From: Chthonomonadales bacterium
GTDB lineage: Bacteria > Armatimonadota > Chthonomonadetes > Chthonomonadales > CAJBBX01
Reading direction: 5' to 3'
DNA length: 64,000 nt
Assembly: GCA_012517255.1 (NCBI GenBank)
Contig: JAAYVH010000313.1
Coordinates: 5,960-69,959 of the forward strand
Part shown: one piece after another, positions 11,429 to 30,320 of the stretch
Layout: every line of letters begins with the position of its first letter
Numbering within the stretch: the first letter of the stretch is position 1
Translations under genes and position numbers: made by a program
Notes under the pieces: generated by a model
Told to the model about the DNA's origin: nothing
The model's database searches: none
The model's input: only the letters and a program-made list of their open reading frames with translations

Positions 11429-11469
11429 CGCTTCACCTCTAGCACGGCCACGGCGTGCAACGATGCGCC

Positions 11470-11498
11470 ATTGTAACACTCGCCGAATGCACCGTCAA
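11470..11498 (-). promoter_or_regulatory. Sigma70-type promoter for the cbiM-Q/cbiO operon
   Basis: Minus strand TTGACG-N17-TACAAT, about 40 nt upstream of the start codon. Confidence 0.7.
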
Positions 11499-12607: not shown

Positions 12608-12790
12608 TGCATGTTCTCCTGTAAGGTAATGTCCGCCCGCCCCTGTGGGCCTTCGGACCGGACTGTAGTTTGGCATCGTGGAGGCCCTTACCTGCAGCTT
12701 TCCGGTCCGATTTTGCATGAGATTCGGCGTCTGGAACCGCTCGCATGGCACCGCCGACGCAGCCCGCGCGCCACCATTGGCGCCAATCGG

Positions 12791-13216
12791 TTCGAGGGCG
12801 AACCAACCGCGATCAGGTGCAGTCCTTCTCTCGGTGATTCGGTTCGGCGGTTGATTAGCCCCTACGACGACAACTCGCGCGTATGGTAGGGGCGTATCAG
12901 CCGGACGGCGACCGTCACCATGACACGAGCGACGACTGCAACCGGCTGGTACGCCCTTGTCACGAGTCGCTTCGAGGGCGAACCAACCGCGATCAGGTGC
13001 GGTCCTTCTATCGATGGTTCGGTTCGGCGGTTGATTCGCCCCTACGACGACAACTCGCGCGCATGGTAGGGGCGTATCAGCCGGACGGCGACCGTCACCA
13101 TGACCCGGGCGACGACTGCAACCGGCTGGTACGCCCTTGTCACGAGCCGCTTCGAGGGCGAACCAACCGCGATCAGGCGCAGTCCTTCTCTCGTTGATTC
13201 GGTTCGGCGGTTGATT
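12791..13216. repeat. 180-bp tandem repeat (about 2.4 copies) of alternating palindromic GTAG-type REP-like elements
   Basis: Units at 12791-12970, 12971-13150 and a partial at 13151-13216. Each full unit has gggcgaaccaaccgc...gcggttgatt(c/a)gcccctac and gtaggggcgtatcagccgg...ccggctggtacgccc. Confidence 0.9.
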
Positions 13217-13280
13217 GGCCGTTACGAGGACGGTGCGTCGGCGAGGACACGGGTACGTTTCTCGTGACGCGCCGGGGCAC

Positions 13281-13311
13281 TTGACTCCCCTGATGCTCTG
13301 CGGGGTATATT
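13281..13311 (+). promoter_or_regulatory. Possible sigma70 promoter for glnA
   Basis: TTGACT (13281) and TATATT (13306); the 19-nt spacer is suboptimal. Confidence 0.4.
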
Positions 13312-13394
13312 CCCATCCGACGATGGGCGGAACGCCCGCAACGACGCTGTGCATACAACGCGAGCGGTCACGCTGATGTGGCCGACCGAAAGGC

Positions 13395-13440
13395 AACGCT
13401 CCCACGGGGACACGGATGCGGTCCCGCGGAGCGTTTTTTT
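13395..13440 (+). terminator. Intrinsic terminator within the glnA 5' leader (attenuator)
   Basis: AACGCTCC...GGGAC/GTCCC...GGAGCG hairpin followed by 7 T, 85 nt before the glnA ATG. Confidence 0.7.
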
Positions 13441-13525
13441 CATGGAGCGCTCGAACCCGGGGCAGCGGGCGCCCTCGATCCGTCAGCCCCGCCAACGCCA
13501 ATAGCGCAAAGGAGACGCACCAACG

Positions 13526-14941
13526 ATGACGCCGAAGGATGTCATTGACCTGGCCATCGAGCGTGAGGCCAAGATCGTGGACGTTCGTTTCGTGGACTTG
13601 CCAGGCATCTGGCAGCACTTCTCGATGCCGCTCTCGGCTTTCACGGAGGAGACATTCGAAGATGGCATAGGGTTCGACGGCTCCTCTATCCGTGGTTTCC
13701 AGAAGATCAACGAATCCGACATGCTGCTCATGCCCGATCCGGACACGGCCTTCATGGACCCGTTTACCGAGGTCGCGCAGATGAACATCATCTGCGACAT
13801 TGAGGACCCGATCACGCGCGAGCGTTACAGCCGCGATCCGCGACAGGTGGCCAAGAAGGCCGAGGCGTATCTCAAGGCTTCGGGCATCGCCGACACCGCC
13901 TACTTCGGACCGGAAGCTGAGTTCTACATCTTCAGCGACATCCGCTACGACACGACGCCCAACTCGGGCTACTACTTCATCGACAGCGAAGAGGGCATCT
14001 GGAACTCGGGCAAGGACGAGAAGCCGAACCTGGGCTACAAGATCCGCTACAAGGGCGGCTACTTTCCCGTGCCGCCGTCGGACTCGCTGCAGGATCTGCG
14101 CACGGAGATGATGCTGACACTCATCGAGACCGGCGTCGAGAGCGAGATCCAGCATCACGAGGTTGGGACGGCAGGCCAGAGCGAGATAGACATTAAGTAT
14201 GGTCCGCTGCTTCAGACTGCCGACAATCTGATGAAGTTCAAGTACGTCATCAAGAACGTGGCCAATCAGAACGGCTATACGGTCACATTCATGCCCAAGC
14301 CGCTCTTCCAGGACAATGGCTCGGGCATGCACTGCCATCAGTCGCTGTGGCTCGCCGGTCGCAATGTCTTCTTCGATGAGAAGGGCTACGCAGGCCTATC
14401 GGAGACCGCCATCTACTATATTGGCGGACTGCTCAAGCACGCGCCAGCCATTCTGGCATTCGCGGCCCCCTCAACCAACTCGTACCGGCGGCTGGTTCCA
14501 GGCTATGAGGCGCCCATCAACCTGATCTACTCGCAGCGCAACCGGTCGGCGTGCATCCGCATCCCCATGTACTCCAAGTCCCCCAAGGCCAAGCGCATCG
14601 AGTTCCGCGCACCGGATCCGTCAGCCAATCCGTATCTCGCGTTCCCGGCAATGCTCATGGCCGGTCTCGACGGTATAGAGAACAAGATCCTTCCTCCGGA
14701 TCCGATCGATAAGGACCTCTACGAGATGGAACCGGAGGAGCGGCACGGCATCAAGATGACGCCGGGAAGTCTCAGCGAGTCGCTGGATGCGCTGGAGGAG
14801 GATCACGAGTTCCTGTTGAAGGGCGGCGTGTTCACCGCCGACCTTATCAGCGAGTATCTCGCCTACAAGCGCAAGAACGAGGTGGATGCCGTTGCACTGC
14901 GCCCGCATCCGCACGAGTTCTATCTGTACTACGACGTGTGA
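13526..14941 (+). CDS. glnA: Type I glutamine synthetase (GSI-beta type)
   Basis: 'FDGSSIRGF', '[12 protein letters not shown]', 'FMPKP...[11 protein letters not shown]', 'NRSACIRIP', 'RIEFRAPDP', adenylylation-site region 'DLYEM'; AAGGAG RBS. Confidence 0.98.
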
Positions 14942-16476: not shown

Positions 16477-17252
<776 letters not shown>

Positions 17253-17287: not shown

Positions 17288-18868
17288 TTAGCCGCGACCC
17301 GAGTTCTTCCTAACGAGCGCGCCGGTGGGGCAGGCATCGGCGCAGGCCAGGGCGACCTCGCGCAAGCCTTCAACCATACCGCTGTGGAAGGGCACTGCCG
17401 TACGAACGCCGAACCCACGCCCCACGAACCCAAGGCCAAGCTCCTCACGCCCTTCGGCGGCGATGCGGACACAGATCCCGCACGCGATGCATTTGCCCGG
17501 CTCGAAGACGATGTCCGGATGGCTATCATCTATCTCGAAGCCGCGCCGTTCGCCTGCAAAGCGAATGGGCTGCGCGCCGTACTGCTCGGCGAACGAGCGC
17601 AACCGGCAGTCGGAGGCCTTGGCACACGCGCACCGCAGGCACCTTCCCGCTTCGGCAATGGCTTGCTCTGGCGTGAAACCCGCCGACGGTTGGGCCGGAG
17701 TCTGCCGTCCCGTGACGCTGCCTAACTGGAGAAACGGCTGGACGCCCTGACTGTCCAGATGGCCAATGTGAACGCTGAACTCCTTGCCGGATCGTCGGTG
17801 ATCCGGCATGCCGGATCCGCCAAGGTACGCGTCCACAGCGTGCGCCGCAGCCCGTCCGTCGCCAACGGCGCGCACTGCATGCCGCAGCGGCATGAGCGAA
17901 CCGCCTGCGGCGAACACGCCTTCGATGCCGGTCATCATGGTCACGCGATCCACCTTCATTCCCTGGGGACCGAAGGTAACGTCCGGCCAGGCCTCGGCGC
18001 TGGAGCGCACGTCGCCGGCGGCGATCAGCACGGCATCATAGTCCGTGCGAAGCTCTCCCAGCGAGACTGCGCTCCCGACCCGAGCGTCCATGACGAACTC
18101 TGCGCCGAGCCTCCGAATGATCTCGATCTCCGCGTCGAGCACGTCCTCGGGCAGCTCGTCGCGCGGAACGCCGTAGCGCAGCATGCCGCCGGGAAGCGGA
18201 TGCTCATCGAACAAGGTGCACGCATGGCCCATCTGCCGGAGATAGTAGGCAGCCGACAGCCCTGCGGGCCCTGAGCCCACGATGGCCACGCGTCGTCCCG
18301 TCGGAGGAGAACATGCGGGCAGATACGGTTCGCCTGAGTTCAGATCGAAGTCGGCCACGAACCGCTTAGTAAGGCACACCGACAGAGCGCCGTCGTGTGC
18401 GGCGCGTCGGCATCCTTTCTCGCAGAGCTCGGGACAGATGCGGCCCAGAACCGCCGGCAACGGTATGCGTTCTTTAACGACGATGAGGGCCTCACGGAAG
18501 CGCCCTTCGGCGGTCAGCCGCATCATCTCGGGGATGTCCATGCACGCGGGACACACGCCCTGGCACGGCCCGATACAGTCTCCGAGGTGGTCACTGAGCA
18601 GCAGCTCGATGGCGGTGCGCCGAGCGTTGCGGACCTCGTCGCTGTCGTTGGCCACCACCATGCCGTCGGCCACGCGCGTGGCGCAGGACGGAACGAGGCG
18701 CGGCATGCCCTCGACGCGGACGACGCACAGCATGCATGACGTCTGCGGGGGCCTGCCCGGCAGATGACACAGCGTGGGTATCTCGATGCCCGCGAGCTCC
18801 GCGGCTTCGAGAATCGTCGCCCCTTCGGGAGCGGTCACGTGCCGCCCGTCAAGACTAATGGACGGCAT
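17288..18868 (-). CDS. Fe-S flavoprotein: NuoG/HydA-like [2Fe-2S] N-terminus + GltD-like FAD module + C-terminal 2x[4Fe-4S]
   Basis: 'IPTLCH...SCMLCVV...PSC', 'DCIGPCQGVCP', 'GRICPELCEKGC', FAD motif 'VAIVGSGPAGLSAA', 'GVFAAG', 'RCLRCAC', 'CIACGIC...CADACP'. Confidence 0.85.
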   Translation of the reverse strand: MPSISLDGRHVTAPEGATILEAAELAGIEIPTLCHLPGRPPQTSCMLCVVRVEGMPRLVPSCATRVADGMVVANDSDEVRNARRTAIELLLSDHLGDCIGPCQGVCPACMDIPEMMRLTAEGRFREALIVVKERIPLPAVLGRICPELCEKGCRRAAHDGALSVCLTKRFVADFDLNSGEPYLPACSPPTGRRVAIVGSGPAGLSAAYYLRQMGHACTLFDEHPLPGGMLRYGVPRDELPEDVLDAEIEIIRRLGAEFVMDARVGSAVSLGELRTDYDAVLIAAGDVRSSAEAWPDVTFGPQGMKVDRVTMMTGIEGVFAAGGSLMPLRHAVRAVGDGRAAAHAVDAYLGGSGMPDHRRSGKEFSVHIGHLDSQGVQPFLQLGSVTGRQTPAQPSAGFTPEQAIAEAGRCLRCACAKASDCRLRSFAEQYGAQPIRFAGERRGFEIDDSHPDIVFEPGKCIACGICVRIAAEGREELGLGFVGRGFGVRTAVPFHSGMVEGLREVALACADACPTGALVRKNSGRG

Positions 18869-21314
18869 GCTCATCCCTCCCTTTGCGCACCACGGTATCG
18901 CCCGTCCGAATGGCGATGGCGTCTTCGGGACATCCGCGACGGCAGGCGTCGCAACGGGTACACAGCTCGTCATTGATGACGTGTTTGGCGAACGGCTTCA
19001 TCGGGATCGCCTCGACGGGGCATTGCTGGGCGCAGATCGTGCAGCCGATGCACTCGTCCCCTATCTCGTAGCGGATCAGAGCCTTGCACACCCCCGCCGG
19101 ACAGCGCCCTTCAATGTGGGCCTCATACTCGTCTCGGAAGTAGCGCAGACCGGTCATAACCGGATTGGGCGCCGTCTGCCCGAGGCCGCAGAGACTGCCT
19201 TGCTTCACCTGTCCGGAGAGCTCCTCCAGCGTGGCGATGTCGGTCTTCCGGCCCTTGCCTTCGCACAGACGCTCCAGTATCTCCAGCAGCCGTTTGGTGC
19301 CGAGACGGCAGAACGTGCACTTTCCGCACGATTCGTGCTGCGTGAAGGCAAGGAAGTACCGGGCGATGTCCACCATGCATGTGTGCTCATCGAGGACAAC
19401 CATGCCGCCGGAGCCCATGATCGCGCCGACGGACGCCAGCGCACTGTAATCCACCGGCGTGTCGGCCAGCGATGCCGGAATGCAGCCGCCCGATGGGCCG
19501 CCGATCTGCACGGCTTTGAATGACGAGCCCTCGGGGACGCCGCCGCCGATCTCCTCGACGATCTGGCGAATCGTGACCCCCATCGGGACCTCGATGAGCC
19601 CGCCCCGGTTGACCTTGCCTGCGAGGGCGAAAACCTTGGTGCCCTTGCTGCTCTCCGTGCCGATGGCTGCGAACGCATCGGCGCCATGGCGGAGTATCCA
19701 TGGAACAAGGGCATAGGTCTCCACGTTGTTGATGCTTGTCGGCTTGCCCCAGAGTCCGCTCTCCGACGGATAGGGCGGGCGCAACGTGGGCACTCCGCGA
19801 CGCCCCTCGATCGAGGCAATGAGGGCCGTCTCCTCGCCGCACACGAAGGCTCCCGCGCCCTCCAGCAGACGCAGGTGCAGCCGCCGACCGGTGCCCAGCA
19901 TGTCGTCGCCGAGGTAGCCCCGCTCCTCACAGACGCGAATGGCATCGCGGATGCGACGGACGGCATAGGGATACTCGGCGCGAACGTACAGGACGCCCTC
20001 TTCAGCTCCCACGGCGTAGGCCGCAATGGCGATTCCCTCGAGAACCCGGAAGGGGAAGGACTCCAGCAGCATGCGGTCCATGAAGGCGCCCGGGTCGCCT
20101 TCGTCGCCGTTGCAGATGACGTACTTGGGTGTGCCTCCGGCAGCGCGCACCTTGGCCCACTTGATGCCGGTCGGGAACCCTGCGCCGCCCCGACCTCGCA
20201 AGCCGCTCCGCTGAACCTCGTCTACCACTTCGTCCGGGCTCAACTCAGTCAGGCACCGCCGCAGGGCCTCGAAACCGCTCCGCGCGATGTACGCTTCCAC
20301 ATCCAGCGGCTCAGCCTCGCCTGCGTGCTCCATGGCAATCCGTTTCTGCGGGCCCAGATAGGCGCAGATGGGCGGATCGCGCATGTCCACAGCGTAGCGC
20401 GTCACCGGTTCCCATGTCTCGTCGCTGGCGAGCCGATCGAGGAGACCCGTGGCAGCCTTTCGTATCCGGGCGCCGAGGCCCATCGGCTCGAAATGGCGCC
20501 GCAACAGCGCTTCGGCATCCCTGGGATCGAACTTCGCATACGTCACCGTCGGTCGGCCTTCGGTCGCTACCTCGACCAGCGGAATCTGGTGGCAGAGGCC
20601 GCTGCACGAGATGCCTCGAACCGTCACCGGCAGGTGCAGATCCCGGGCCGCCTGAACGACTGCATCGCGAACATGCATCGTGCCGCCGGCGATGCAGCAC
20701 GAGTCGAGAGCGAGCCGGACCTCTCCCATGGCGGGGCGGGATGGCTTGCCGTTGTCCGATGCGTCGAGCGCTCCCCGTCGTTTGAGCGCGAGGAAGTCCT
20801 CGAGAGCCCCTTCGACGTTGTCGGCATTCATGTAGCCGTAGGTGAGGCCGTCTATCTGGATGACCGGCGCAAGGGTGCAGCACCCGACACACGCGACGCG
20901 CGCCACGGTAAACACGCCGTCTCGATCGGTGTCCTCTTCCGCGGTCAGCCGCAGATGACGCCGGAGCGCCTCATCAACAATCCCCGAGCCCTTGACATGG
21001 CAGGCCGTGCCGTGGCAAACGCTCACCACATGCATACCGACCGGCTTGAGCCGGAACTGCGAATAGAACGTTGCGGCTCCCATCAGGTCCGCCGGCGTGA
21101 TGGATGTCTCGCGGCACACCTGCTTGAGAGCGGGCTCGGGCAGATAGCGGTACTCGCGCTGGATGGCCTGCAAGATCGAGATCAGCGCCTCCTGGCCGCG
21201 ACCCGTCTGCTCGACGAGCGCGGAGACGAAGGCTTCCATCTCGTCGGCCGAGGGGCGACGCGCGGCAGACTGCGCCACCGGGGCGGGCTTCTTGCGCTCG
21301 AACAGCCGAACCAT
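18855..21314 (-). CDS. Fused NuoE-NuoF (HydC-HydB-like) NADH-binding FMN/Fe-S subunit
   Basis: NuoE 'VCHGTACHVKG...ACVGCCTLAP'; thioredoxin-like [2Fe-2S] 'SCCIAGG...CSGLC'; 'GRGGAGFPTG', 'CNGDEGDPGAFMDR', 'GEETAL', 'SCGKCTFC', 'SLCGLG'; two C-terminal ferredoxin motifs. Confidence 0.9.
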   Translation of the reverse strand: MVRLFERKKPAPVAQSAARRPSADEMEAFVSALVEQTGRGQEALISILQAIQREYRYLPEPALKQVCRETSITPADLMGAATFYSQFRLKPVGMHVVSVCHGTACHVKGSGIVDEALRRHLRLTAEEDTDRDGVFTVARVACVGCCTLAPVIQIDGLTYGYMNADNVEGALEDFLALKRRGALDASDNGKPSRPAMGEVRLALDSCCIAGGTMHVRDAVVQAARDLHLPVTVRGISCSGLCHQIPLVEVATEGRPTVTYAKFDPRDAEALLRRHFEPMGLGARIRKAATGLLDRLASDETWEPVTRYAVDMRDPPICAYLGPQKRIAMEHAGEAEPLDVEAYIARSGFEALRRCLTELSPDEVVDEVQRSGLRGRGGAGFPTGIKWAKVRAAGGTPKYVICNGDEGDPGAFMDRMLLESFPFRVLEGIAIAAYAVGAEEGVLYVRAEYPYAVRRIRDAIRVCEERGYLGDDMLGTGRRLHLRLLEGAGAFVCGEETALIASIEGRRGVPTLRPPYPSESGLWGKPTSINNVETYALVPWILRHGADAFAAIGTESSKGTKVFALAGKVNRGGLIEVPMGVTIRQIVEEIGGGVPEGSSFKAVQIGGPSGGCIPASLADTPVDYSALASVGAIMGSGGMVVLDEHTCMVDIARYFLAFTQHESCGKCTFCRLGTKRLLEILERLCEGKGRKTDIATLEELSGQVKQGSLCGLGQTAPNPVMTGLRYFRDEYEAHIEGRCPAGVCKALIRYEIGDECIGCTICAQQCPVEAIPMKPFAKHVINDELCTRCDACRRGCPEDAIAIRTGDTVVRKGRDEHAVH

Positions 21315-23302
21315 CACTTGGCCCCGATGCAGTAGAGGTGCTGCTTGCCTCTGATGATGATCCTGGAACCGACGAACGCAGGCGAGGCGTTCACCTCTTC
21401 GCCGAGCGGGCATTTGGCCAGCAGCTTGAACGCGTTGCCGGCCTCCATGATGTGCGTGACGCCATCGGAAGCTGTCAGGTAGATGCGGCCGTCGGCAAGC
21501 ACCGGCGAGGAGCGGACGGTGGTGGCAATGTCGGCATCCCAGGCCGGCTTGCCCGTGGTGATATCCACGCACGTCAGCCAGCCCTCGGTCATCACAAGCA
21601 GCATGCGATTGCCGAACACGACAGGGCTGGCAATGTCGGGCAGTCCGTCCCCTCCGGTCCACAGCACCGCGGTCTTGGTGACATCGCCGGCGCTGTCGGG
21701 CCGGATGGCTGCCGAGTTCGACCCCTGATTGGCAACCAGCACATAACCCGGCCCAAAAACGGGCGAGATGGCAACCTCGCCGCCGAGCACGTCTGCGCGC
21801 CAGATCTCCTTGCCGTTGTGCGGGTCGTAGGCGATGACGCGCGGCGACGCCGTTGTGATCAGCTGCTCGGAGCCGTTGACGGTGATGACAATCGGGGTGC
21901 TCCATGAGGCGCCGACGTCGCGCTTGATCTGCCAGACTGTCTTGCCCGACACGAGGTCAAGCGCCATCAAGACGGACTTGGCGTCGTCGCCGTGTCCCTG
22001 ATCCAGTTGGAGGATGAGCCCGGAGCCGAAGATCACCAGGGAAGTGGCGTGGCCGTAGGGATTCTCAAGCGGCCCGAAGCTCCGCGTCCACAGCAGCTTG
22101 CCGTTCATATCGAGGCAGGCAACATCGCCCGTCACGAACATGGCGCATATGCGCGCGCCGTCGGTCGCGAGCGTGGACGGTGCGTAGCCGGTGTCGGCCT
22201 GAACCTTCGGCACGGGCACGCCGGCAGGAAGCGGTATGGCAGTCCGCCAGACGATGGCGCCGGTATCTAGGTTCACCGCGTAGACCTCGCGGCTCTCGGC
22301 AGTGGCTCCGCTCAAAAAGATGCGGTTGCCCCAGACGATGGGCGAGTTCCAGCCGGGCAGCGGAATGGCTGTCTTCCACAGCACGTTCTCGCCCTTCGCT
22401 CCATCCCACTTGATGGGCGGCTTCCGGTTCAGCGCGACGCCGGTGCCTTCAGGACCGCGGAACCTGGGCCAGTTCTCTGCCCAACCAGGCGCCAGGGAGG
22501 CACTTACGGTCGGTGCCGGCTTCTTGGCCAGTTCAGGGGCAGCGGCAGGCTTGGGGGGAGCGCCTCTATCTGTCGGCATGGGAACCAGCAGCGTGCCAGG
22601 GCCAGATAGCGTGCCGCCCTCGGGTTGAGCCACCGAGCCTGAGCCGGCTGCCTGTGGCGAGGCGGAGGCGATCGGAAGGCCGGGCGCGGTCGGCGCTGGC
22701 GCATTGGACGCATCACGGGCAGATTGTGCCGAGGCAACGGTCCTGGCTGGCGACCTGTCGGCCGCGCGGGCATACTCGGCCAGAGAATCGTGGCGCGCAA
22801 GGACCGACAGGGTTGCCAGCGTGCCCGCCAGGATGCCGCCGACGGTAACCACTGACCGGAATGTCGCTTCAGCGGCCATACGCGCCCGCGTGGCGGCATC
22901 TGGCCGAGGGGCAGGAAGCTGCGGCTGTCGCCTCCGTACGACTTCAGAGGCGAGCAGATAGACCACGGTGGCCGCCAGCATGAGCCATGCGCCGCGCAGG
23001 GCGAAGTCCCGGTGACGGAGATAGTCCTGACGCACCCGCTTGTCTTCGTTGCGCACGCGAGCGCGCAGCGCCTCGTCGCCGGGATGCAGCGTGAGCTGAT
23101 GCTGGAGCTCGATCAGCCTCGTGGCCTTTGCCGGGTCTTCACTGCGACTGGCGACAGCGTTGGCGACCATGAGCGCCAGCACAATCCCTGCGAAGACCAC
23201 GGCTACGCGCGCCGTGCGCTGCGCCGCGGCCATGACCACGTCTTCGCTGGAGGCGGCGTTCAACGAGCCGGAGGAAAGAGTTGAGGATGGTGCGGTGTTC
23301 AT
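21314..23302 (-). CDS. Membrane-anchored PQQ-like (BamB-type) beta-propeller protein
   Basis: N-terminal hydrophobic helices, Pro/Ala linker, 'WPRFRGP', 'NVLWKT', 'WNSPIVW', repeated 'G..VW' blades; ATGA coupling to the upstream gene. Confidence 0.8.
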   Translation of the reverse strand: MNTAPSSTLSSGSLNAASSEDVVMAAAQRTARVAVVFAGIVLALMVANAVASRSEDPAKATRLIELQHQLTLHPGDEALRARVRNEDKRVRQDYLRHRDFALRGAWLMLAATVVYLLASEVVRRRQPQLPAPRPDAATRARMAAEATFRSVVTVGGILAGTLATLSVLARHDSLAEYARAADRSPARTVASAQSARDASNAPAPTAPGLPIASASPQAAGSGSVAQPEGGTLSGPGTLLVPMPTDRGAPPKPAAAPELAKKPAPTVSASLAPGWAENWPRFRGPEGTGVALNRKPPIKWDGAKGENVLWKTAIPLPGWNSPIVWGNRIFLSGATAESREVYAVNLDTGAIVWRTAIPLPAGVPVPKVQADTGYAPSTLATDGARICAMFVTGDVACLDMNGKLLWTRSFGPLENPYGHATSLVIFGSGLILQLDQGHGDDAKSVLMALDLVSGKTVWQIKRDVGASWSTPIVITVNGSEQLITTASPRVIAYDPHNGKEIWRADVLGGEVAISPVFGPGYVLVANQGSNSAAIRPDSAGDVTKTAVLWTGGDGLPDIASPVVFGNRMLLVMTEGWLTCVDITTGKPAWDADIATTVRSSPVLADGRIYLTASDGVTHIMEAGNAFKLLAKCPLGEEVNASPAFVGSRIIIRGKQHLYCIGAK

Positions 23303-24657
23303 TCCAGTGTGATCAGTCCCAGCCGTTCGTGCTCTACGGGACACGACATGTAGCAACGTGCGCACGATAGACACGATGCTCGGTCCGCCTCGTAGTCCTC
23401 GCGCCTTCGCCGGACATGAAGCAGAATCAGCTTCCCGCCAATGACCAGACCGGCCCACGCACCGAGCAACGCCGAACCGACATCAAAGCGCCTGCGAACC
23501 TCCACGGCGCGCGCGTAGGCGATGCCGAACGGCTGCGCCAGTTGCCGGTACGCGTCGGTTTCGTCGGTGGTTCCCCTGACGCGGCCACGCTCCTCGGCCC
23601 AGAGCCGTTCCGCGAGGCGCACATCCCTGTGCGTGCGCGATATGGTTGGCGAGGCCGCGTAGCCCAGGGCCGCGAGCAATGGGACGAGCGCCGCTGTGAT
23701 CATGAGCGCCCGTATCAGACCCTTGCGGGCCTGCTGACGCCCGCCTGCCTGTTCGGCGGGCGTGGGCGGATGGATGGCGCCGAACGGACACTCATCGGCG
23801 CAGAGGTGACAGTGCAGGCACTCACCCGGCGTGATTCGCACACGCCATCGAGAGAGCGCCGATGCCCAGCGCAACAGCACGCCATATGGGCATAGATAGC
23901 GGCAATAGGGACGCCCGACACGCGTTCCCAGCGCCAGTAACGCGGCTCCGAACGCGATCACCCCCCACGCTCCGCCCATGCGATAGAAGGGGATGAACGG
24001 GTCGTACATGCAGATGAGGAAGCTCGCTCCCGTCCATGCCAGCAGCGCCGACAGACCGAGGTACAGATACGGGACGAGCCCGAGCGTATGATCCACCGCA
24101 GGATGGGTCTGCACCGGTCGAAGCACCACGAGATCCTGAATCGCCCCGAGCGGGCAGGCCGTACCGCAGAAGATCCTGCCCACAAACAGCGCGAACACAA
24201 GCGGCAGGACGAAGAACGCTCCCACGGTCACCGGAAGGCGATAGGATGGATCGCCAAGCGCAAGAGCGACGTTCTGGATCGAGCCGATGGAGCAGACGCA
24301 TCCCATCCGGTAGAACCCGAAGTACAGCGCAGAAAAGACGACCAGAACGCGCACGCCTGTGCGTGAACGCATTTTGAACACGAACCACGTGCCGAGGACG
24401 AGCACTGCCGCCAGCAGGGCCACATCGATGTAGGCGAACGTGTCGGCTCGAGGCGATGGCTCCGTGGGAGTCGGCGGGAAGTAGCCCGACGTGAACTCGG
24501 GAGGCGGCTGCTTCTTCTGCTCCTGAGCCCAGGCGACCGAGGGCACGATGCCCGAGACGAGCAGCACGGACCATAGGGCACTCGCGGCGAGCAGGGATCG
24601 GCATGTCCCGCTGCCCCGCTCGGTCCATCGCGCGAGCCTGAGGACCGTCCGACTCAT
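23299..24657 (-). CDS. Membrane 4Fe-4S binding protein (NapH/MauN/NosR-like polyferredoxin)
   Basis: Multiple TM helices, 'GRIFCGTACPLG', 'YCRYLCPYG', 'CLHCHLCADECP', 'CLSCARCYMSCP'. Confidence 0.85.
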   Translation of the reverse strand: MSRTVLRLARWTERGSGTCRSLLAASALWSVLLVSGIVPSVAWAQEQKKQPPPEFTSGYFPPTPTEPSPRADTFAYIDVALLAAVLVLGTWFVFKMRSRTGVRVLVVFSALYFGFYRMGCVCSIGSIQNVALALGDPSYRLPVTVGAFFVLPLVFALFVGRIFCGTACPLGAIQDLVVLRPVQTHPAVDHTLGLVPYLYLGLSALLAWTGASFLICMYDPFIPFYRMGGAWGVIAFGAALLALGTRVGRPYCRYLCPYGVLLRWASALSRWRVRITPGECLHCHLCADECPFGAIHPPTPAEQAGGRQQARKGLIRALMITAALVPLLAALGYAASPTISRTHRDVRLAERLWAEERGRVRGTTDETDAYRQLAQPFGIAYARAVEVRRRFDVGSALLGAWAGLVIGGKLILLHVRRRREDYEADRASCLSCARCYMSCPVEHERLGLITLE

Positions 24658-25259
24658 CACGACTTGCGCAGGGTCCGAATGAGATAGGGCTTCGAGGCTG
24701 GCACACGCACGAAAGCCTGCGAGGGACAAGCCTTCGCAATCGCGCACTGATTGCAGTTCACGCAGCGGTCGTGGCGCACCTGAAGGTGCAGCGATCCGTT
24801 GCCGAACCGATTGCAGCCCTTGACGCAGATGCCGCAGCCGATGCATGCAGGCTCGTCGATGAACATCTCGTAGAACGGGTCTTCGACGAATCGGCGCTTG
24901 ATGGCATCGACCGGGCAGCGGTTGTCCTCGGCTGCCAGCGTGTTACCTGTCCGCTTGTCTTTGAAGAGACCAAAGCAGAGCTTGCAATAGCCGCACAGCG
25001 CGTAGGCATGCACGCACTTCACCGCTGACGGCGTGATGACACATTCCGTCGCGCACTTGCCGCACTGGATGCATTTGGCCGGATCGATCTGCCAGACCGT
25101 CGGTTCCGAACGCGAGCCGCGAGCGAGCGACGCCAGGGCGCCTCCGGCTATCACGAGGCCGCCGAAACGAGCCGCTCCTGCCACGAAATCGCGGCGCGAT
25201 GCCTTCGGCTTGTCGGCGGAAGCGACCGACCTATTCGTCGTATCGGATATGTCAGACAT
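24657..25259 (-). CDS. Tat-exported multi-cluster ferredoxin (NapG/MauM-like)
   Basis: Tat motif 'SRRDFV'; 'CIQCGKCATEC', 'CGYCKLC', 'CIGCGICVKGC', 'CVNCNQC...CP'. Confidence 0.85.
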   Translation of the reverse strand: MSDISDTTNRSVASADKPKASRRDFVAGAARFGGLVIAGGALASLARGSRSEPTVWQIDPAKCIQCGKCATECVITPSAVKCVHAYALCGYCKLCFGLFKDKRTGNTLAAEDNRCPVDAIKRRFVEDPFYEMFIDEPACIGCGICVKGCNRFGNGSLHLQVRHDRCVNCNQCAIAKACPSQAFVRVPASKPYLIRTLRKS

Positions 25260-25527
25260 CGGGTTTCCGTTCGCTTGGTGGTTGGGCCTTGCGGCCGTCA
25301 CGATAATAGACGGCTTCCGGCTTGCCGCAGATACGCACCGCGCCGCATCCTGAGCATAGAGGCTGGCCCGAAGGACCGTACAGGCAGGCCGGCGCACGAT
25401 CGTCTGTGCCCCGTCTCATCAGGTGCGCGATGCCTCCCAGGAAGCCTGTCAGCGCCGCAGTGCGAGCGAGCGTGCGGAACAACTCGCGACGCGATGAAGC
25501 GTGCCCCCCGTCACTTCGGCTATGCAC
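25252..25527 (-). CDS. Small Tat-signal, four-cysteine hypothetical protein
   Basis: GTG start overlaps the upstream gene; 'SRRELF' plus hydrophobic stretch; C-x9-C-x2-C-x5-C; overlaps both neighbours. Confidence 0.6.
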   Translation of the reverse strand: MHSRSDGGHASSRRELFRTLARTAALTGFLGGIAHLMRRGTDDRAPACLYGPSGQPLCSGCGAVRICGKPEAVYYRDGRKAQPPSERKPDV

Positions 25528-26530
25528 TGTCCTGTCCCTTGGGCTCGTATACGCGCACCGCGTTGATCCCCTTGTCCAGCACCGCAATGCGGCCGTCGCT
25601 CATGACAGCCACGTCGAGACCCACGACGCCTGGCGAGAGGTCCTCGTGACCGGCCACAACGCACTCGAAGTGACCTTGCTTACTGTATATCTTGACCCGG
25701 GGGATGCCCTTTTCTGATGTAACGTACCGGCCGTCGGGCAGCAGCGCGATGTCGGTAGGATTGCAGCAGCCGCAGAACCCCTGTACCTGCTGTCCATCCT
25801 CGCCCCAGCTCCATCGCGGAGAACCGTCGGGCTCGTAGATCTCGATCTTGTGGGCGCCGGGGTTCACGACGTGAACGGCTCCTTCCTCATCCACAACTAC
25901 ATCGAGGTGCGGACTGGGCACGATGAGGCCGCTGTAACCCCGTTTCGGATCCTTCTCGCACATGTACCCGATCACTTTGCCGGTCGGATCGCAGCGGACG
26001 ATTCGGCGGCCGACCGAGTCCCCGAGGTAGATCGTATCCGGTCCGAGCGCGATGCACGTGATAAGGCCCTCGGGAGCGAACGGCTCCCACGCTTCGGCGC
26101 GTTCCGCATTGGGCCGCACGATCTCGACGTGGTTGCCCACGCCGATGAACAGAGCGCCGAGACCTGCGGCCATGCAGGTCGCCTCGCCGCTGATGACGGC
26201 GCTCGAGGGCAGCGCGCCGCGAGAAGAGCGGTCGACCCCCTCTCCTCCGGCAAGCCGCACAACCTGACGGTCACCCGCGACCCAGAGGCTGCCGTCATGT
26301 GATGTGGCGATGCCCGCAGGGGACGGTACCTGAACCGCAACTTGCTCGGCCTCGTGGTACTTGACTAAGGCCTTATCGGTCTCTTCAATGACGTCGTCGG
26401 TCGAGACGATCGGGCGTTCGCGTTTGCAGCCTGTAACGATGCTGGTTAGCGCCACCACGCCAGCGCCGCCAAGCAACGCTTCCCGGCGCGACACGACGCG
26501 CCCCAATGACCCGGATGTGGGCTTGCTCAT
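25520..26530 (-). CDS. NHL-repeat beta-propeller, Tat lipoprotein
   Basis: 'SRREALL...IVTGC' (Tat motif plus lipobox); NHL-like repeats; motif 'FCGCCNPTDIA'. Confidence 0.75.
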   Translation of the reverse strand: MSKPTSGSLGRVVSRREALLGGAGVVALTSIVTGCKRERPIVSTDDVIEETDKALVKYHEAEQVAVQVPSPAGIATSHDGSLWVAGDRQVVRLAGGEGVDRSSRGALPSSAVISGEATCMAAGLGALFIGVGNHVEIVRPNAERAEAWEPFAPEGLITCIALGPDTIYLGDSVGRRIVRCDPTGKVIGYMCEKDPKRGYSGLIVPSPHLDVVVDEEGAVHVVNPGAHKIEIYEPDGSPRWSWGEDGQQVQGFCGCCNPTDIALLPDGRYVTSEKGIPRVKIYSKQGHFECVVAGHEDLSPGVVGLDVAVMSDGRIAVLDKGINAVRVYEPKGQDSA

Positions 26531-26580
26531 CGTTCAGGCCTCCTCTGACTATACGCTCCGGCCATTGCTGCGCGATCCAA

Positions 26581-28008
26581 CTACGGCTTGGCCATCTCCA
26601 AACAGACCATGCGATGCACGTCACGGACAAGCAAGCGGGTTCCTGCCAGCGCCATGGGACCCCACGCTTCCGGTCCCTCGAGCACCTTGATCTGCGCCAG
26701 ACGCTTGTACCCCGCAGGGGTCGCCTCGATCGCGCTCAGGTTGCCGCTGTCGCTCAGCGCAAGCAGCACGCCGTCCGCCAGCATGTATGCGCCGAGGCCG
26801 AAGCGGTCGGTGCCGCTGGTCCACAGGCTCTTGCCTGTTGTGTCGAGACAGGTCATCTGGCCGCCTGGCTTGACGCCGTAGACGTGGTTCTTGTAGAAGA
26901 CGGGGGTCTGCTGATCGGAACCGAACACCTGGGGTCTCAGGCGGGTGACCACTCGCGCCGACAGGCTGGCGCCAGAGCCCTCGATCTTCAGGAACATAGC
27001 GCCAGATTCATAGCCGCCGGTCAGCAACAGCATCCCGTTGCCGAGGGCCACTGGGGTGGGCACCGTGGCGGTGTTGATCACCCAGTCCGTGTTCTCCCAC
27101 AGCAGCTTGCCGTCGGATGCCGAGACTCCCGCCACGCCGCCGCTTCCGCACCAGACGTACTGCGCCACGCCGCCGATGGTAGTGGGCAGGGGCGTAGAGT
27201 GCGTCATCAGCCACTTGCGCGGGTTGGGAGTCTGCCACATCACCTTGCCGGTGCCGATCTCGAATGCCATCATGAGCGCCTGGCCGCCCGTCCCGATTAC
27301 GACGCGGGTGCTGTCCACGATGGGGCACTGGCCAGCGTACCACTCGGGCACGGTCACGCCATACTCGGCGACGAGATCGTGCTGCCAGATGATCGCGCCC
27401 GTGTCGGCATCCATGCATGTGAGATGGCACTTGGGTCCGAGCGTGACCACGTACTTGTCGGTGACGCTCGGTATGGTCCTCGACATGCCATGGTTGCGCT
27501 TCACGACGACGGGATAGCTCCTCCGCCAGATCTCCTCGCCATTCGCAAGCGCGAAGCACCGGACGGAATCGGCCTGGCCCGCCTGATCGTAGTCAATGAG
27601 GTAGACCCGTCCGCGCCGCACGGCAGGGGCCGCATAGCCCTCACCAAGCTGAACGCTCCAGAGGGCGCGCGGCGGGCTGGCAGACCACTCGAATCCTAGC
27701 TTGCTGCCGGTCTCGCCGATGTTGTCTCGCTCGGGTCCCCGGAACCACGGCCAGAGCCCGGGCAGATCCTCGACCTTGGCTGCCGCATTGGAGAAGCTGG
27801 TACCGCCTCCACCGGCGGCAGGAGCCGGCTGTTGCGCGCGGGTTGACGGCGCCTCGTCAATGCCGAGAGGACGCTCATGCACGGGTGTCGGACGAACATA
27901 GCCGTGTACCCACCAACCGATGGCAACGGCGCCCAGAACGGCCGCCACGGACGGTGCGGCGTTGACGATCCACCATCGGGATCGTGCGCGGTCGTCTGAG
28001 TTGCTCAC
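26581..28008 (-). CDS. PQQ-like (BamB-type) beta-propeller protein
   Basis: N-terminal TM; 'WPWFRGPERD', 'GEGYAAPAV', repeated 'G..IW' blades. Confidence 0.82.
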   Translation of the reverse strand: MSNSDDRARSRWWIVNAAPSVAAVLGAVAIGWWVHGYVRPTPVHERPLGIDEAPSTRAQQPAPAAGGGGTSFSNAAAKVEDLPGLWPWFRGPERDNIGETGSKLGFEWSASPPRALWSVQLGEGYAAPAVRRGRVYLIDYDQAGQADSVRCFALANGEEIWRRSYPVVVKRNHGMSRTIPSVTDKYVVTLGPKCHLTCMDADTGAIIWQHDLVAEYGVTVPEWYAGQCPIVDSTRVVIGTGGQALMMAFEIGTGKVMWQTPNPRKWLMTHSTPLPTTIGGVAQYVWCGSGGVAGVSASDGKLLWENTDWVINTATVPTPVALGNGMLLLTGGYESGAMFLKIEGSGASLSARVVTRLRPQVFGSDQQTPVFYKNHVYGVKPGGQMTCLDTTGKSLWTSGTDRFGLGAYMLADGVLLALSDSGNLSAIEATPAGYKRLAQIKVLEGPEAWGPMALAGTRLLVRDVHRMVCLEMAKP

Positions 28009-28119
28009 AGGAGGAATGATACCTGACCCGACGATCCGGAACCGACCGAGCCCTTACGGGGTATGATTCGTGTCAGGCTCCGCAGACGGCGGGCGCGACT
28101 GATCAGGAGGACCGGATCC

Positions 28120-28938
28120 GTGGGGTATCGAGACCGTCGAGCATTCACGCTCATCGAATTGCTTGTCGTCATCGCCATCATTGCCATCCTTGCAGCCATT
28201 CTCTTTCCCGTCTTTGCACAGGCCCGCGAGAAGGCGCGCCAGACTTCGTGCCTCAACAACCATCGTCAGCTAGGCACGGGTCTCATGCTGTATGTCCAGG
28301 ACTACGATGAGACCTACCCGATCACGTTCTACATGGGCGCGGAGGCCTCGGGCATGCCCTGCATCCTTACGTCCTTCCAGGCGCTTCAGCCCTATCAGAA
28401 GAACTCTCAGATCGTGCAGTGCCCATCGGATCCTGCCAAGCTCGATTTTGCCCGCGGCACCGCGATCATGGGCTTCCCTCCGCCCTGCTCGGCCGCTCCG
28501 CCCGTAACGATCCTGAGCTACCAACCCAACATGCGCCTCATCGACGTGGGCGATCCCAACTACCTCGTGAACCCGTACACGGGATTCACGGGGAGACCTG
28601 TCCGGCGCATGGCCGAGGTGGAGTTTCCTGCGGAAACGGGAGCCTACTCCGACTCCACCATCGCGCTGCAGGGTGGCACTGCCAACTACACGACCTATGA
28701 TCTGCCGGTGCAGGCGCGGCACGGCCTGAGCATCAACGTATGCTTCGCGGATGGCCACGCCAAGCTGATGAAGGTCAGGCCCGAGCTTGGCAGCGATGGC
28801 GCGCAACTGGGGGGACTGCAACTCGACGGGCAGGCGATTCGATCGTGGCTCATTGCCGACGACGGCCCCTATGCCGGCAAGCGGCAAGTGTGGGGCATTC
28901 CGTTCCGGCTTCCCGATGGGTCATGGGGAATACGGTAG
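28120..28938 (+). CDS. Prepilin-type N-terminal cleavage/methylation protein, DUF1559 with H-X9-DG motif
   Basis: AGGAGG RBS then GTG at 28120; '[33 protein letters not shown]', 'CPSD', '[14 protein letters not shown]'. Confidence 0.9.
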
Positions 28939-29033: not shown

Positions 29034-30320
29034 ATGCGCATAGCCCATCTTGCGGCCGGAGCCGGCGGTATGTATTGCGGGGCATGTGCCCGCGATACGA
29101 TGCTTGCGCGCGGGCTAATGGCCCGCGGCCACGACGTGCAGATCATCCCTCTCTACACGCCTCTCCGCTTCGACGGCTCGGAGCCGCTGCCGACCAGTCG
29201 CATCTTCCTGGGCGGGGTCAACGCCTATCTGGAGCAGTATGTGCCCGTCTGGCGCTATCTGCCCCGCAGCATTCGGCGTGCGCTCGATCATCCGCGGCTG
29301 CTGGAATGGGTGTCGAGATTCGCCGTCTCGACGCGCGCTGGCGATCTTGGACCCATGATCGTGTCCGTGCTCCGCGGTATGGGGGGCAATCATGCCGGCG
29401 TGTTTGGCGAGCTCATGGATTACCTCCACGCCATGGCCCGGCCCGATCTGGTGAGTATCACCAACTCGTTGCTCACAGGGGTCGCGCCGGAGATCAAGCG
29501 CAGGATGGGGACCCCCATCGTCTGCGGGTTGCAGGGCGAGGACACCTTCGTTAACTCCGCTCCGGAGCCTTTTCGTTCGCAAGCGATCGAGCAGATGCGC
29601 AAGAATGCGCAGGCCGTCGATATGTTCCTCTCGCCCGGCGAGGCCTATGCGGCCACCATGGCCGACTTCCTCGGCGTTCCGAGGGAAAGGGTGCGCGTTA
29701 CGCGTGTCGGCGTGGATGCTCAGGCGTTCCGCGCCGATGCACGCACGCGGCCCTTCCCCTTCACCGTCGGCTTTCTTTCGGTGATCACGCCGCTCAAGGG
29801 TCTCGACATCCTGGTGGATGCACTCCTCAGACTGCACCAGCGCGGGAGAGAACTCGAACTGGCCATAGCGGGCAAGGTTCTCGACCGTTCCTATTGGCTC
29901 AGCCTGGTGCGCCGTCTTGACGATGCCGGCCTCGCCGATCGGATGCGGTACGCCGGCGAAGTCACATTCGCCCAGAAGGTTCGCTTCCTGCACGGATGCT
30001 CGGCCTTCTGCATGCCGAGCAGGCAGCCTGAGACCAGAGCCGTGGCCGCGCTCGAGGCGCAAGCAGCGGGACTGCCTGTAGTGGTTCCAAACGCGGGAAT
30101 CTTCCCCGAGATGCTGGCCCTGACGCAAGGAGGCGTCCTGTTCGAGCCCGGAAACAGCGAATCGCTTGCTGACGCCATTGAGCGGCTCATGGAAGACCCC
30201 GAAGCCACCCTGCGTATCGGGGAGGCCGCTGCGGCCGGGGTGTCGCTGCACTTCCGACCAGAAAGGCTCACCGAAGAGACGCTGGAAGCCATTCGGGACG
30301 TGCTGGGGAGCCGGGTGTAG
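29034..30320 (+). CDS. Glycosyltransferase family 4 protein
   Basis: GT-B pattern 'RGHDV', 'KGLDIL', 'MPSRQPET...LEAQAAGLPVV'. Confidence 0.88.
   Translation: MRIAHLAAGAGGMYCGACARDTMLARGLMARGHDVQIIPLYTPLRFDGSEPLPTSRIFLGGVNAYLEQYVPVWRYLPRSIRRALDHPRLLEWVSRFAVSTRAGDLGPMIVSVLRGMGGNHAGVFGELMDYLHAMARPDLVSITNSLLTGVAPEIKRRMGTPIVCGLQGEDTFVNSAPEPFRSQAIEQMRKNAQAVDMFLSPGEAYAATMADFLGVPRERVRVTRVGVDAQAFRADARTRPFPFTVGFLSVITPLKGLDILVDALLRLHQRGRELELAIAGKVLDRSYWLSLVRRLDDAGLADRMRYAGEVTFAQKVRFLHGCSAFCMPSRQPETRAVAALEAQAAGLPVVVPNAGIFPEMLALTQGGVLFEPGNSESLADAIERLMEDPEATLRIGEAAAAGVSLHFRPERLTEETLEAIRDVLGSRV

Follow-up and report, generated by a model that had tools for sequence, protein, structure and literature searches.

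What can an operon be for when it holds a series of redox proteins and no recognisable catalytic subunit? This question is raised by eight consecutive genes, G1 to G8 (Table 1), in 64,000 nucleotides of DNA from a Chthonomonadales bacterium of the Armatimonadota (assembly GCA_012517255.1, contig JAAYVH010000313.1); this whole stretch, with a G+C content of about 65%, is called the window below. An earlier reading, made from the letters alone (the sequence-only reading), had taken the genes as an electron conduit between cytoplasmic NAD(H)/ferredoxin and periplasmic beta-propellers. We found that the set is conserved together and that G7 is a full Bfu-type flavoprotein, and these parts of the claim stood; the direction of flow and the physical coupling of the parts we infer. 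Our tentative answer, which we hold at somewhat less than an even chance, is that the eight genes encode one trans-membrane electron conduit leading from NADH, probably together with reduced ferredoxin, to a periplasmic propeller assembly.

Eight minus-strand genes with G2 to G8 overlapping had been described between positions 17288 and 28008, and the open reading frame coordinates agree. Gene starts were picked by agreement among orthologues and by twin-arginine translocation (Tat) or signal motifs. From these coordinates, the overlaps are 8 nucleotides for G2/G3 and for G3/G4, 1 for G4/G5, 4 for G5/G6, 1 to 4 for G6/G7 (GTG or ATG start), and about 20 for G7/G8, and G1 and G2 are spaced by 50 nucleotides without overlap. 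A scan with consensus promoters and terminators stayed at chance level (0 promoters against 1.5 expected, 4 terminators against 4.7 expected). The domain make-up named earlier for all eight genes was reproduced with Pfam and NCBIfam. Pfam found no hydrogenase, NiFe or molybdopterin domain and no cytochrome in the eight proteins, so the statement that the operon has no H-cluster, NiFe or molybdopterin subunit holds.

The eight-gene operon is more than a chance arrangement because its gene order is kept in many genomes. Orthologue-level matches to G5 (E below 1e-100) were found in 16 of the 41 genomes of the host order, the host genome included, and thus the distribution is patchy; 15 of these 16 are among the 24 genomes of the host family. 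In all 13 loci of relatives (13/13) the order G1-G2-(G3)-G4-G5-G6-G7-G8 is colinear up to the contig limits. A wider scan with a profile from the 13 G5 orthologues, taking one genome per species, turned up 399 loci coding for a G5 relative. In the best 80 of these 399 loci, partner genes were counted by tblastn, using only loci with enough sequence on that side (Table 1; locus L092 has masked stretches). Each partner was present in 49/53 to 73/73 loci with room, as expected if the set is conserved jointly. G3 is too short for tblastn and was sought by pattern instead: 60 of 73 loci have a small open reading frame of the G3 type between G2 and G4, and 9 of the other 13 have a G3 in which KR/RK or a single R replaces RR, or which lies upstream of G2. 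By record labels, the nearest carriers are Chthonomonadales (Armatimonadota), and further carriers belong to Planctomycetota (Pirellulales, Phycisphaerae), Verrucomicrobiota (including Pontiella), Bacteroidota (Prolixibacteraceae, Draconibacterium), KSB1, WS1, Aegiribacteria, and Zipacnadia. The labels thus span at least seven phylum-level groups.

In some loci, single genes that look unrelated and lineage-specific are inserted between G5 and G6, G6 and G7, or G7 and G8 (L035:11319-14381, L044:15772-17193, L073:13318-14652, and L052:13217-14734). Their translations, read by eye, resemble a large secreted glycosidase-like protein, a tryptophanase-like enzyme, an ArsB/NhaD-type permease, and a flavin adenine dinucleotide (FAD) protein. 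The order of the set survives such insertions, so the set tolerates them. An apparent insert between G6 and G7 in L038 was rejected since it is an intact G6 gene.

Table 1. Coordinates of the eight genes and of one neighbouring gene in the window (aa, amino acids), with the presence of partner genes in other loci
Feature	Position	Strand	Description	Partner present/loci with room	Partner missing in
G1	26581-28008	minus	475 aa; inner-membrane-anchored (one N-terminal helix) eight-bladed BamB/PQQ_2-like beta-propeller	67/71	L083, L089, L092, L099
G2	25520-26530	minus	336 aa; Tat-signal, lipobox, NHL six-bladed propeller	73/75	L089, L092
G3	25252-25527	minus	about 91 aa; twin-arginine motif, hydrophobic helix, then four Cys		
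G4	24657-25259	minus	200 aa; Tat-exported polyferredoxin, NapG-like in architecture	77/78	L092
G5	23299-24657	minus	452 aa; polytopic membrane Fe-S protein, NapH/NosR (Fer4_5) superfamily		
G6	21314-23302	minus	662 aa; three-helix membrane domain, Pro/Ala-rich linker, second BamB/PQQ_2-like propeller	73/73	
G7	18855-21317	minus	820 aa; NuoE/NfnC-like [2Fe-2S] + full-length NfnB/HydB-type flavoprotein fusion	58/60	L069, L099
G8	17288-18874	minus	528 aa; shortened NfnA/StnC-like Fe-S flavoprotein	49/53	L035, L037, L092, L099
GT4 glycosyltransferase	29034-30320	plus	428 aa; Pfam Glycos_transf_1 / Glyco_transf_4; divergent from operon		

The cytoplasmic half consists of G7 and G8. In G7, Pfam found 2Fe-2S_thioredx, Complex1_51K, NADH_4Fe-4S, and a C-terminal dicluster (Fer4_21). 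Its first ~200 residues are NuoE-like (2Fe-2S_thioredx at the N-terminus, 1e-41), and they are followed by a thioredoxin-like N-domain, a flavin mononucleotide (FMN)/NADH site, a [4Fe-4S] cluster, and a C-terminal 2x[4Fe-4S] part; the stretch 'GDEGDPGAFMDR' occurs in it. In a phmmer search of the PDB, residues 200-804 aligned to residues 7-595 of the 602-residue NfnB 9n5u_B (2e-213), and the NfnB of Caldicellulosiruptor saccharolyticus (9bov_B) matched at 1e-211, while the complex I subunit Nqo1 of Thermus reached only 1e-113 and other Bfu-type HydB/HoxF chains ranked after NfnB. The cluster cysteines of G7 are 88-100% conserved among 48 sequences: Cys 664/667/670/710, 756-766, and 786-796 at 98-100%, Cys 207/208/238/242 at 88-100%, and the BfuC-type C101, C106, C143, and C147 at 100%. 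G7 therefore contains what defines BfuB (FMN/NADH site, B1 cluster, thioredoxin-like N-domain, and C-terminal 2x[4Fe-4S]), and also the NuoE-like [2Fe-2S] cluster C1 of BfuC, which is fused to BfuB instead of residing on a separate chain. The likeness of G7 to HydBC-type, electron-bifurcating modules that was proposed earlier was thus confirmed, with full HydB/NfnB and NuoE domains. G7 is not the housekeeping NuoEF, since two other NuoE/F pairs are encoded elsewhere in the host genome. We also noted a NuoE plus NuoF-like pair on another host contig (G000:C176:17815-19916) whose NuoF part is 58% identical to G7; it is possibly another Bfu-type enzyme of the host.

G8 resembles the A subunit of the same enzymes but is much shorter. 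Pfam matches to Fer2_4, Fer4_20, a FAD Rossmann domain, and an Nqo3-type ferredoxin (Fer4_Nqo3) give a layout of the [2Fe-2S] cluster A1, a GltD-type 2x[4Fe-4S] part, the FAD Rossmann domain, and NuoG-type clusters; the N-terminal A1 and the NuoG/HydA-type clusters that mark BfuA are thus present. In the PDB search, G8 matched NfnA/StnC (9bov_A of C. saccharolyticus 1e-114, 8oh5_C 4e-105, and 9n5u_A 5e-102), and it also aligned to HydA1 and HoxU. It aligned to the 1178-residue NfnA in two pieces, residues 3-297 to 3-296 and 305-523 to 452-674, and the parts of NfnA with no counterpart in G8 are about 155 residues in mid-chain (297-451) and about 500 at the C-terminus. G8 thus has neither the NAD(P)H Rossmann subdomain nor the formate dehydrogenase (FDH)-like C-terminal domain, and the combination of FAD and NADPH Rossmann folds found in the A subunit of NfnABC/StnABC is absent from it. 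The first Rossmann motif GSGPAGL (GxGxxG) is kept and is followed directly by the C-terminal FAD motif. In StnC, residues 102-565 are described as GltD-like with NADPH between the two Rossmann folds, and the FdhF-like domain as inactive (PMC10482914).

The shortening of G8 is general. Among 49 aligned G8 sequences, the window included, the segment in place of the NADPH subdomain has 50-77 residues in 48 and 222 in L097, a locus from a Verrucomicrobia metagenome-assembled genome (MAG). This protein (L097:6448-8520) keeps the missing ~146 residues with GGGNTAMD...YRR, the sole case among the 49, and it possibly represents an ancestor of the shortened flavoprotein or a stage on the way to it. Conservation is 88-100% at the Cys/His ligands of A1, of both GltD-type clusters, of the NuoG-type cluster, and of one cluster of the ferredoxin type; the conserved cluster cysteines are C36/47/50/64, C412/415/417/423, and C462/465/468/515. 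Judged from their sequences, G7 and G8 are an Nfn-type Bfu module whose nicotinamide third-substrate site was removed. Since G8 lost both the NADPH site and the FDH-like domain, the 'missing catalytic subunit' of the operon would be a lost site and not merely an unrecognised one. The loss seems to fit an enzyme that passes electrons to a protein partner and not to NADP. Pyruvate:ferredoxin oxidoreductase scored above its model cut-off in the host genome, so reduced ferredoxin is available.

Some genes next to or joined with G8 in other loci were noticed. In a Bacteroidaceae MAG (L085:15390-18194), the G8 frame runs on without a stop through a linker and a trans-membrane helix to a PQQ_2-like propeller. 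In six of seven sister loci (L042, L051, L053, L076, L084, and L086), this propeller is encoded separately, by a signal-peptide gene immediately behind G8, and in L089 its frame and the end of G8 overlap. The fusion could be real or an assembly error, and we regard it as a lead only. In an Armatimonadia locus (L055:about 17700-18997), a gene of the uroporphyrinogen decarboxylase (URO-D) family (uroporphyrinogen decarboxylase/methyltransferase-like) directly follows G8. A gene of this family also lies at 7428-8570 on the minus strand of the window, about 9 kb downstream of G8, which may be a coincidence.

G5 and G4 are the candidates for carrying electrons across the membrane. G5 matched Fer4_5 in Pfam (3e-14) together with ferredoxin motifs. 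It has two CX3CP motifs (C164-x3-C168-P and C252-x3-C256-P) that are invariant in 13 orthologues, an invariant G-C-x-C, and a QPPPEF stretch conserved after a signal-like helix. Two invariant CxxCxxCxxxCP motifs are parted by a two-helix hairpin. A rough hydropathy analysis gave 7-8 helices and put the two ferredoxin motifs on one side of the membrane, presumably the cytoplasmic one. G4 has an invariant RR (SRRDFV in the window) and 16 invariant Cys in four cluster motifs among 31 sequences, and it matched several Fer4 families (4Fe-4S motifs); its best PDB profile match is 9mqx_E, a WorS-type Fe-S subunit of a Bfu complex (E 1.6e-6). Thus the architecture of a NapGH-type pair, as the sequence-only reading had named it, is seen in G4/G5: a Tat four-cluster ferredoxin beside a membrane protein with two CX3CP and two [4Fe-4S] motifs. 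The family assignment itself did not stand. G5 scored far below the NapH models (TIGR02163 35.3 bits against a cut-off of 213, NF007013 28.2 against 234) and the NosR model NF046105 (41.9 against 1000), and Pfam found no FMN_bind domain in it. The NapG model is absent among the 12 NCBIfam matches of G4, and the operon has no molybdopterin or cytochrome gene. G5 relatives fall in at least 2581 protein clusters at E<=1e-30, all with generic names such as '4Fe-4S binding protein', 'polyferredoxin', or 'NosR/NirI family'. The G5 profile found only generic ferredoxin motifs in the PDB and no solved NapH/NosR-type membrane domain by sequence.

At the periplasmic end, the small protein G3 and the propeller G2 carry conserved cysteines. 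G3 has the twin-arginine motif SRRELF, and its family has the Cys spacing C-x5-C-x2-C-x5-C in 54/60 loci (11-2-5 in the window copy), with R13, R14, C58, C61, and C67 invariant. It had no match to a Pfam family; PF04246, the N-terminal Cys motif of RseC/MucC/RnfF, was matched by 2 of 41 G3 sequences with a best E of 0.15. A G3 profile found 2729 representative proteins at E<=0.001; the 150 best of them range from 66 to 132 amino acids in length, so none of those 150 is fused. G2 has the motif SRREAL followed by a VTGC lipobox, and it is an NHL propeller (PF01436, 25.8 bits against a cut-off of 20). Its AlphaFold2 model is six-bladed with a predicted local distance difference test score (pLDDT) of 88.2, and Foldseek matched it at about 1e-14 to the NHL domains of TRIM2/Thin. 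No enzyme was among the solved NHL-type matches (TRIM2/3/71, Thin, Brat), and the other listed matches are G-protein beta propellers. Although the mean column identity of G2 is 35% among 50 sequences, F252, G254, C255, C256, N257, P258, T271, and E273 are invariant, and the motif F-x-G-C-C-N-P holds the Cys-Cys pair C255 C256. A protein-cluster look-up of G2 and of the N-terminal part of G6 returned only unnamed or generic NHL clusters. From these patterns, the strongest candidates for the terminal site of the chain are the Cys-Cys of G2 and the four-Cys mini-protein G3, ahead of the 'PQQ-like' propellers.

The propellers G1 and G6 had been suggested to be catalytic or scaffold parts, and the scaffold part of this suggestion fared better. 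Both matched Pfam PQQ_2 (G1 8.6e-27, G6 5e-23). The AlphaFold2 model of G1 is an eight-bladed propeller anchored by a helix (residues 4-38; pLDDT 88.8), and its best Foldseek match in the PDB is BamB (E about 1e-18, 20-21% identity). Among the matches listed (ranks up to 50), tetrathionate hydrolase takes ranks 35-36, and pyrroloquinoline quinone (PQQ) dehydrogenases do not occur. By phmmer, G1 matched only tetrathionate hydrolase in the PDB (E 3e-5). G1 and G6 scored 18.8 and 33 bits with the quinoprotein model TIGR03075 (cut-off 480), no stretch of either passed PF01011 alone, and the scores with the BamB equivalog TIGR03300 were 53.8 and 76.4 bits (cut-off 285). Both have trans-membrane helices and no lipobox, so they are not lipoproteins like BamB and only the fold is common. 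Hydropathy gave the three-helix membrane domain of G6, and G6 is split into two genes in some phyla, as seen from split tblastn matches (e.g. L042, L066, L071). In the 100%-complete host genome, pqqC was not found and pqqE was not found above cut-off; the pqqC control was positive in 0 of 14 control genomes, so this negative on PQQ supply is weak. Since G1 is nearest to BamB, no PQQ dehydrogenase was listed, and no PQQ supply was found, the label 'PQQ-like' denotes a resemblance in fold only. The scaffold-like models of G1 (BamB) and G2 (NHL) thus agree with the earlier suggestion, and a likeness of G1 to PQQ dehydrogenases does not.

How might these parts work together? G7 would oxidise NADH at the FMN and exchange electrons with ferredoxin at its C-terminal diclusters. 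In NfnA, the functional path is reported to be FAD-A7-A6-A3-A2-A1 to the B1-FMN-C1 flavobicluster, with A4/A5 as a dead end (PMC11829005). Electrons would travel along G8 to its exposed FAD end, which would dock on the Fe-S domain of G5, with its ferredoxin motifs predicted to be cytoplasmic, and so take the place of NADPH. They would then cross through G5 to G4, and pass to G3, likely a small Fe-S or dithiol centre, and to the Cys-Cys of G2, with G1 and G6 as putative scaffolds or substrate holders. Confurcation of NADH and ferredoxin, as in Bfu enzymes, would yield electrons below the potential of NADH. We prefer the outward direction because the membrane potential favours it, and because a module without a soluble mid-potential substrate is most simply a donor. 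The acceptor might be an envelope lipid or glycan, as suggested by the recurrent glycosyltransferase family 4 (GT4), MacB-type exporter, and Armatimonadota terpenoid genes described below. In its most specific form, which we consider on the unlikely side, the proposal is that the third-substrate site of a Bfu module was replaced by a trans-membrane Fe-S wire, and that NADH, reduced ferredoxin, and the membrane potential drive a very low-potential reduction of an envelope lipid or glycan at a new periplasmic site formed by the G2 Cys-Cys and G3.

Several points weigh against a single conduit. The contact between G8/G7 and G5 is one that we infer. The membrane/periplasmic half occurs without an adjacent G7 (L069, L099) or G8 (L035, L037, L099, and the masked L092). 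In the window G8 and in most non-Planctomycetota forms, another residue stands in place of the Asp of the FAD 'GD' motif, so FAD binding is uncertain, and the L097 G8 keeps the NADPH subdomain, so the loss of this site is not obligatory. Since G3 has no family match, its Fe-S nature is a guess. From RNA libraries, the metatranscriptome run X20 gave seven short contigs with 95-99% likeness to parts of G8/G7, G7, the G7/G6 junction, G6, G4, and the G3/G2 junction; they come from one run and are possibly DNA, and a transcript cannot be demonstrated from them. Three 'METAGENOMIC RNA-Seq' runs are probably DNA. The NapH of E. coli is seen as a subunit that oxidises quinol (cited in PMC8238504), so the electron source of G5 could be quinol instead of G8. 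A quinol-linked G5/G4 pair of the NapGH type might then supply the periplasmic proteins, and G7/G8 might act alone, e.g. as a ferredoxin:NAD oxidoreductase, or feed the quinone pool via G5. The absence of G7 beside the cluster in 2 of 60 loci and of G8 in 4 of 53 would fit such an arrangement, but both are adjacent and in order in the other loci of many phyla (58/60 and 49/53), and their genes overlap their neighbours. It would also leave a stand-alone G7/G8 without a third substrate, since the soluble substrate site of G8 is specifically lost, and G5 reaches 35 bits where NapH requires 213. We therefore consider this arrangement improbable.

We find it just as improbable that electrons flow inward, in which case a periplasmic donor would be oxidised at the NHL/propeller assembly, its electrons would pass via G4 and G5 to G8, and G7 would bifurcate these electrons between NAD+ and ferredoxin, in the way that NfnABC treats electrons from NADPH. 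The BfuA side of characterised Bfu enzymes usually feeds mid-potential electrons to the BC core (PMC11829005, PMC12318220), NapH-like systems occur with extracytosolic oxidases such as ExaA (PMC8238504), and the weak sequence match of G1 is to a sulfur-compound enzyme, tetrathionate hydrolase. However, this flow runs against the membrane potential by established bioenergetics, no recognisable oxidase cofactor site was found in the proteins, and the model of G1 is nearest to the non-enzymatic BamB. Moreover, the labelled relatives are from groups that, to our knowledge, are not known as lithotrophs. Somewhat less improbable, though still unlikely, is an envelope-biogenesis machine, in which BamB-like scaffolds, GT4, and a MacB-type exporter would make or export a lipid or glycan and the redox chain would serve its maturation (thiol/disulfide or lipid reduction). 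It overlaps the conduit proposal and differs mainly in the main product. Besides the BamB-like G1, the genes around the set speak for it. When the flanking open reading frames of the best 80 loci were clustered into families, an ATP-binding cassette (ABC) ATPase was found in 34 loci and a ~1100-residue FtsX/MacB_PCD permease in 32, on the same strand and immediately downstream of G8 or upstream of G1. In 17/80 loci the cluster is flanked by a member of one GT4 family; a GT4 gene also lies beside the window operon, and its product is 36% identical over its full length (E 3e-88) to the GT4 of a cluster in a Pirellulales MAG. A divergent set of a Fe-S protein, a radical S-adenosylmethionine enzyme, a squalene-hopene cyclase, and a polyprenyl synthase-DUF116 protein accompanies the Armatimonadota-type loci (17-21). 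But the ABC pair of the host genome is on another contig among unrelated genes, the terpenoid-type set is limited to one locus group, and we know of no step in envelope lipid or glycan pathways that needs periplasmic low-potential electrons.

We compared the gene set with known systems, and in the structure, family, and literature searches it matched no characterised complex, in line with the earlier reading of an uncharacterised conduit. The nearest relatives of the cytoplasmic half are NfnABC/StnABC of C. saccharolyticus (9bov), Sporomusa ovata (8oh5), and an archaeon (9n5u). G7 corresponds to NfnB and NfnC joined in a single chain, with every domain and cluster ligand, and G8 corresponds to the N-terminal portion of NfnA/StnC, including the clusters on the functional FAD-to-A1 path. 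Unlike in these enzymes, B and C are fused, the genes share an operon with membrane and Tat-exported proteins, and G8 is without the ~500-residue FDH-like domain and the NADPH Rossmann subdomain, so G7/G8 cannot be a NADPH transhydrogenase. WorABCSL of Acetomicrobium mobile (9mqx) also places a short BfuA between the BC core and extra four-cluster ferredoxins; G4 has its nearest solved relative in 9mqx_E, and G7 and G8 match 9mqx_B and 9mqx_A. With WorABCSL, the structure of a Bfu core joined to additional polyferredoxin or Fe-S subunits has already been solved (PMC12318220). This complex is soluble and ends in a tungstopterin enzyme, whereas the wire predicted here crosses the membrane and ends in propellers without a known cofactor.

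The membrane part resembles NapGH, NosGH, MauMN, and the NosR/PceC-type proteins in having a Tat four-cluster ferredoxin beside a polytopic Fer4_5 protein with two CX3CP and ferredoxin motifs predicted to be cytoplasmic. G5 differs from them by its hairpin-split ferredoxin domain, the invariant GCxC, the N-terminal QPPPEF, and the lack of a FMN-binding domain, and the operon has no Nap, Nos, or Mau enzyme. NapH-like proteins have been proposed to transfer electrons across or at the membrane as modular trans-membrane carriers (PMC8238504). G1 shares the eight-bladed PQQ_2-type fold with BamB, the outer-membrane assembly lipoprotein of E. coli, and with tetrathionate hydrolase (7cqy/6l8a), without evidence of PQQ. 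Unlike BamB, G1 and G6 have inner-membrane helix anchors and stand in a redox operon. In the Hmc, Tmc, and Qrc complexes of sulfate reducers, cytoplasmic Fe-S, membrane, and periplasmic Fe-S subunits that are encoded together link both redox sides. The logic is alike, but the families are unrelated, and these complexes use haems and NrfD/HdrD-type subunits, none of which are present here.

Full-text searches of the literature found no description of this gene set; the supplements of PMC9304861 and PMC8238504, which were outside this search, could contain one. The Bfu survey leaves 17 BfuB clades unassigned, and its main text is without the words periplasm, Armatimonadetes, and Verrucomicrobia (PMC9304861). 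The survey of NapH-like proteins covers only flavinylation-linked clusters (PMC8238504).

Other features of the window and of related loci were also recorded. Extra G1-like propeller genes flank the set in Planctomycetota, Bacteroidota, and KSB1. DUF1559 prepilin-type genes with an N-terminal methylation motif lie at 28063-28938 on the plus strand of the window, between the operon and the GT4 gene, and at L103:5136-5948 on the minus strand. DUF1559 prepilin-like proteins are often taken as a hallmark of Planctomycetota, and the window is from an Armatimonadota genome. A 660-residue open reading frame at 9497-11479 (minus strand) has CbiM, a PDGLE (CbiN-like) domain, and CbiQ, and it looks like a fused cobalt/nickel uptake membrane module of the energy-coupling factor type. 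In a 907-residue open reading frame at 11615-14338 (minus strand), GFO/IDH/MocA domains are confined to residues 579-907. The upstream part of this frame is overlapped by a glutamine synthetase gene on the opposite strand (13526-14941, plus), so the real gene is probably much shorter and the long frame a high-GC artefact. A P-II gene follows at 16863-17252 (plus strand). DNA nearly identical to the whole stretch or part of it occurs in sludge, anaerobic-digester, and bioreactor metagenomes (20 records from 11 studies, of which two may be the source sample of the assembly), which describes the habitat of the host.

As read from the proteins it encodes, the gene set joins a Bfu module with a NapH-type carrier, both of known kinds. 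Bfu enzymes so far are described as soluble or as predicted parts of proton-pumping Nuo/Mbh-type complexes (PMC9304861). If the conduit proposal is true, NADH/ferredoxin would be named as the donor for a NapH-type trans-membrane carrier, and a Bfu module would be found working across a membrane. G8, in which nature has cleanly deleted the NADPH site, offers a direct way to test how Bfu modules are re-wired. If NADH and ferredoxin indeed drive a reduction at G2/G3, the genes would encode a new class of periplasmic reductase system in organisms whose labels span the phylum-level groups listed above. The carriers are abundant environmental heterotrophs of the Planctomycetota, Verrucomicrobiota, Bacteroidota, and Armatimonadota, yet every part of the system bears a generic name, and the identity of its substrate could reveal a new periplasmic or envelope redox chemistry.

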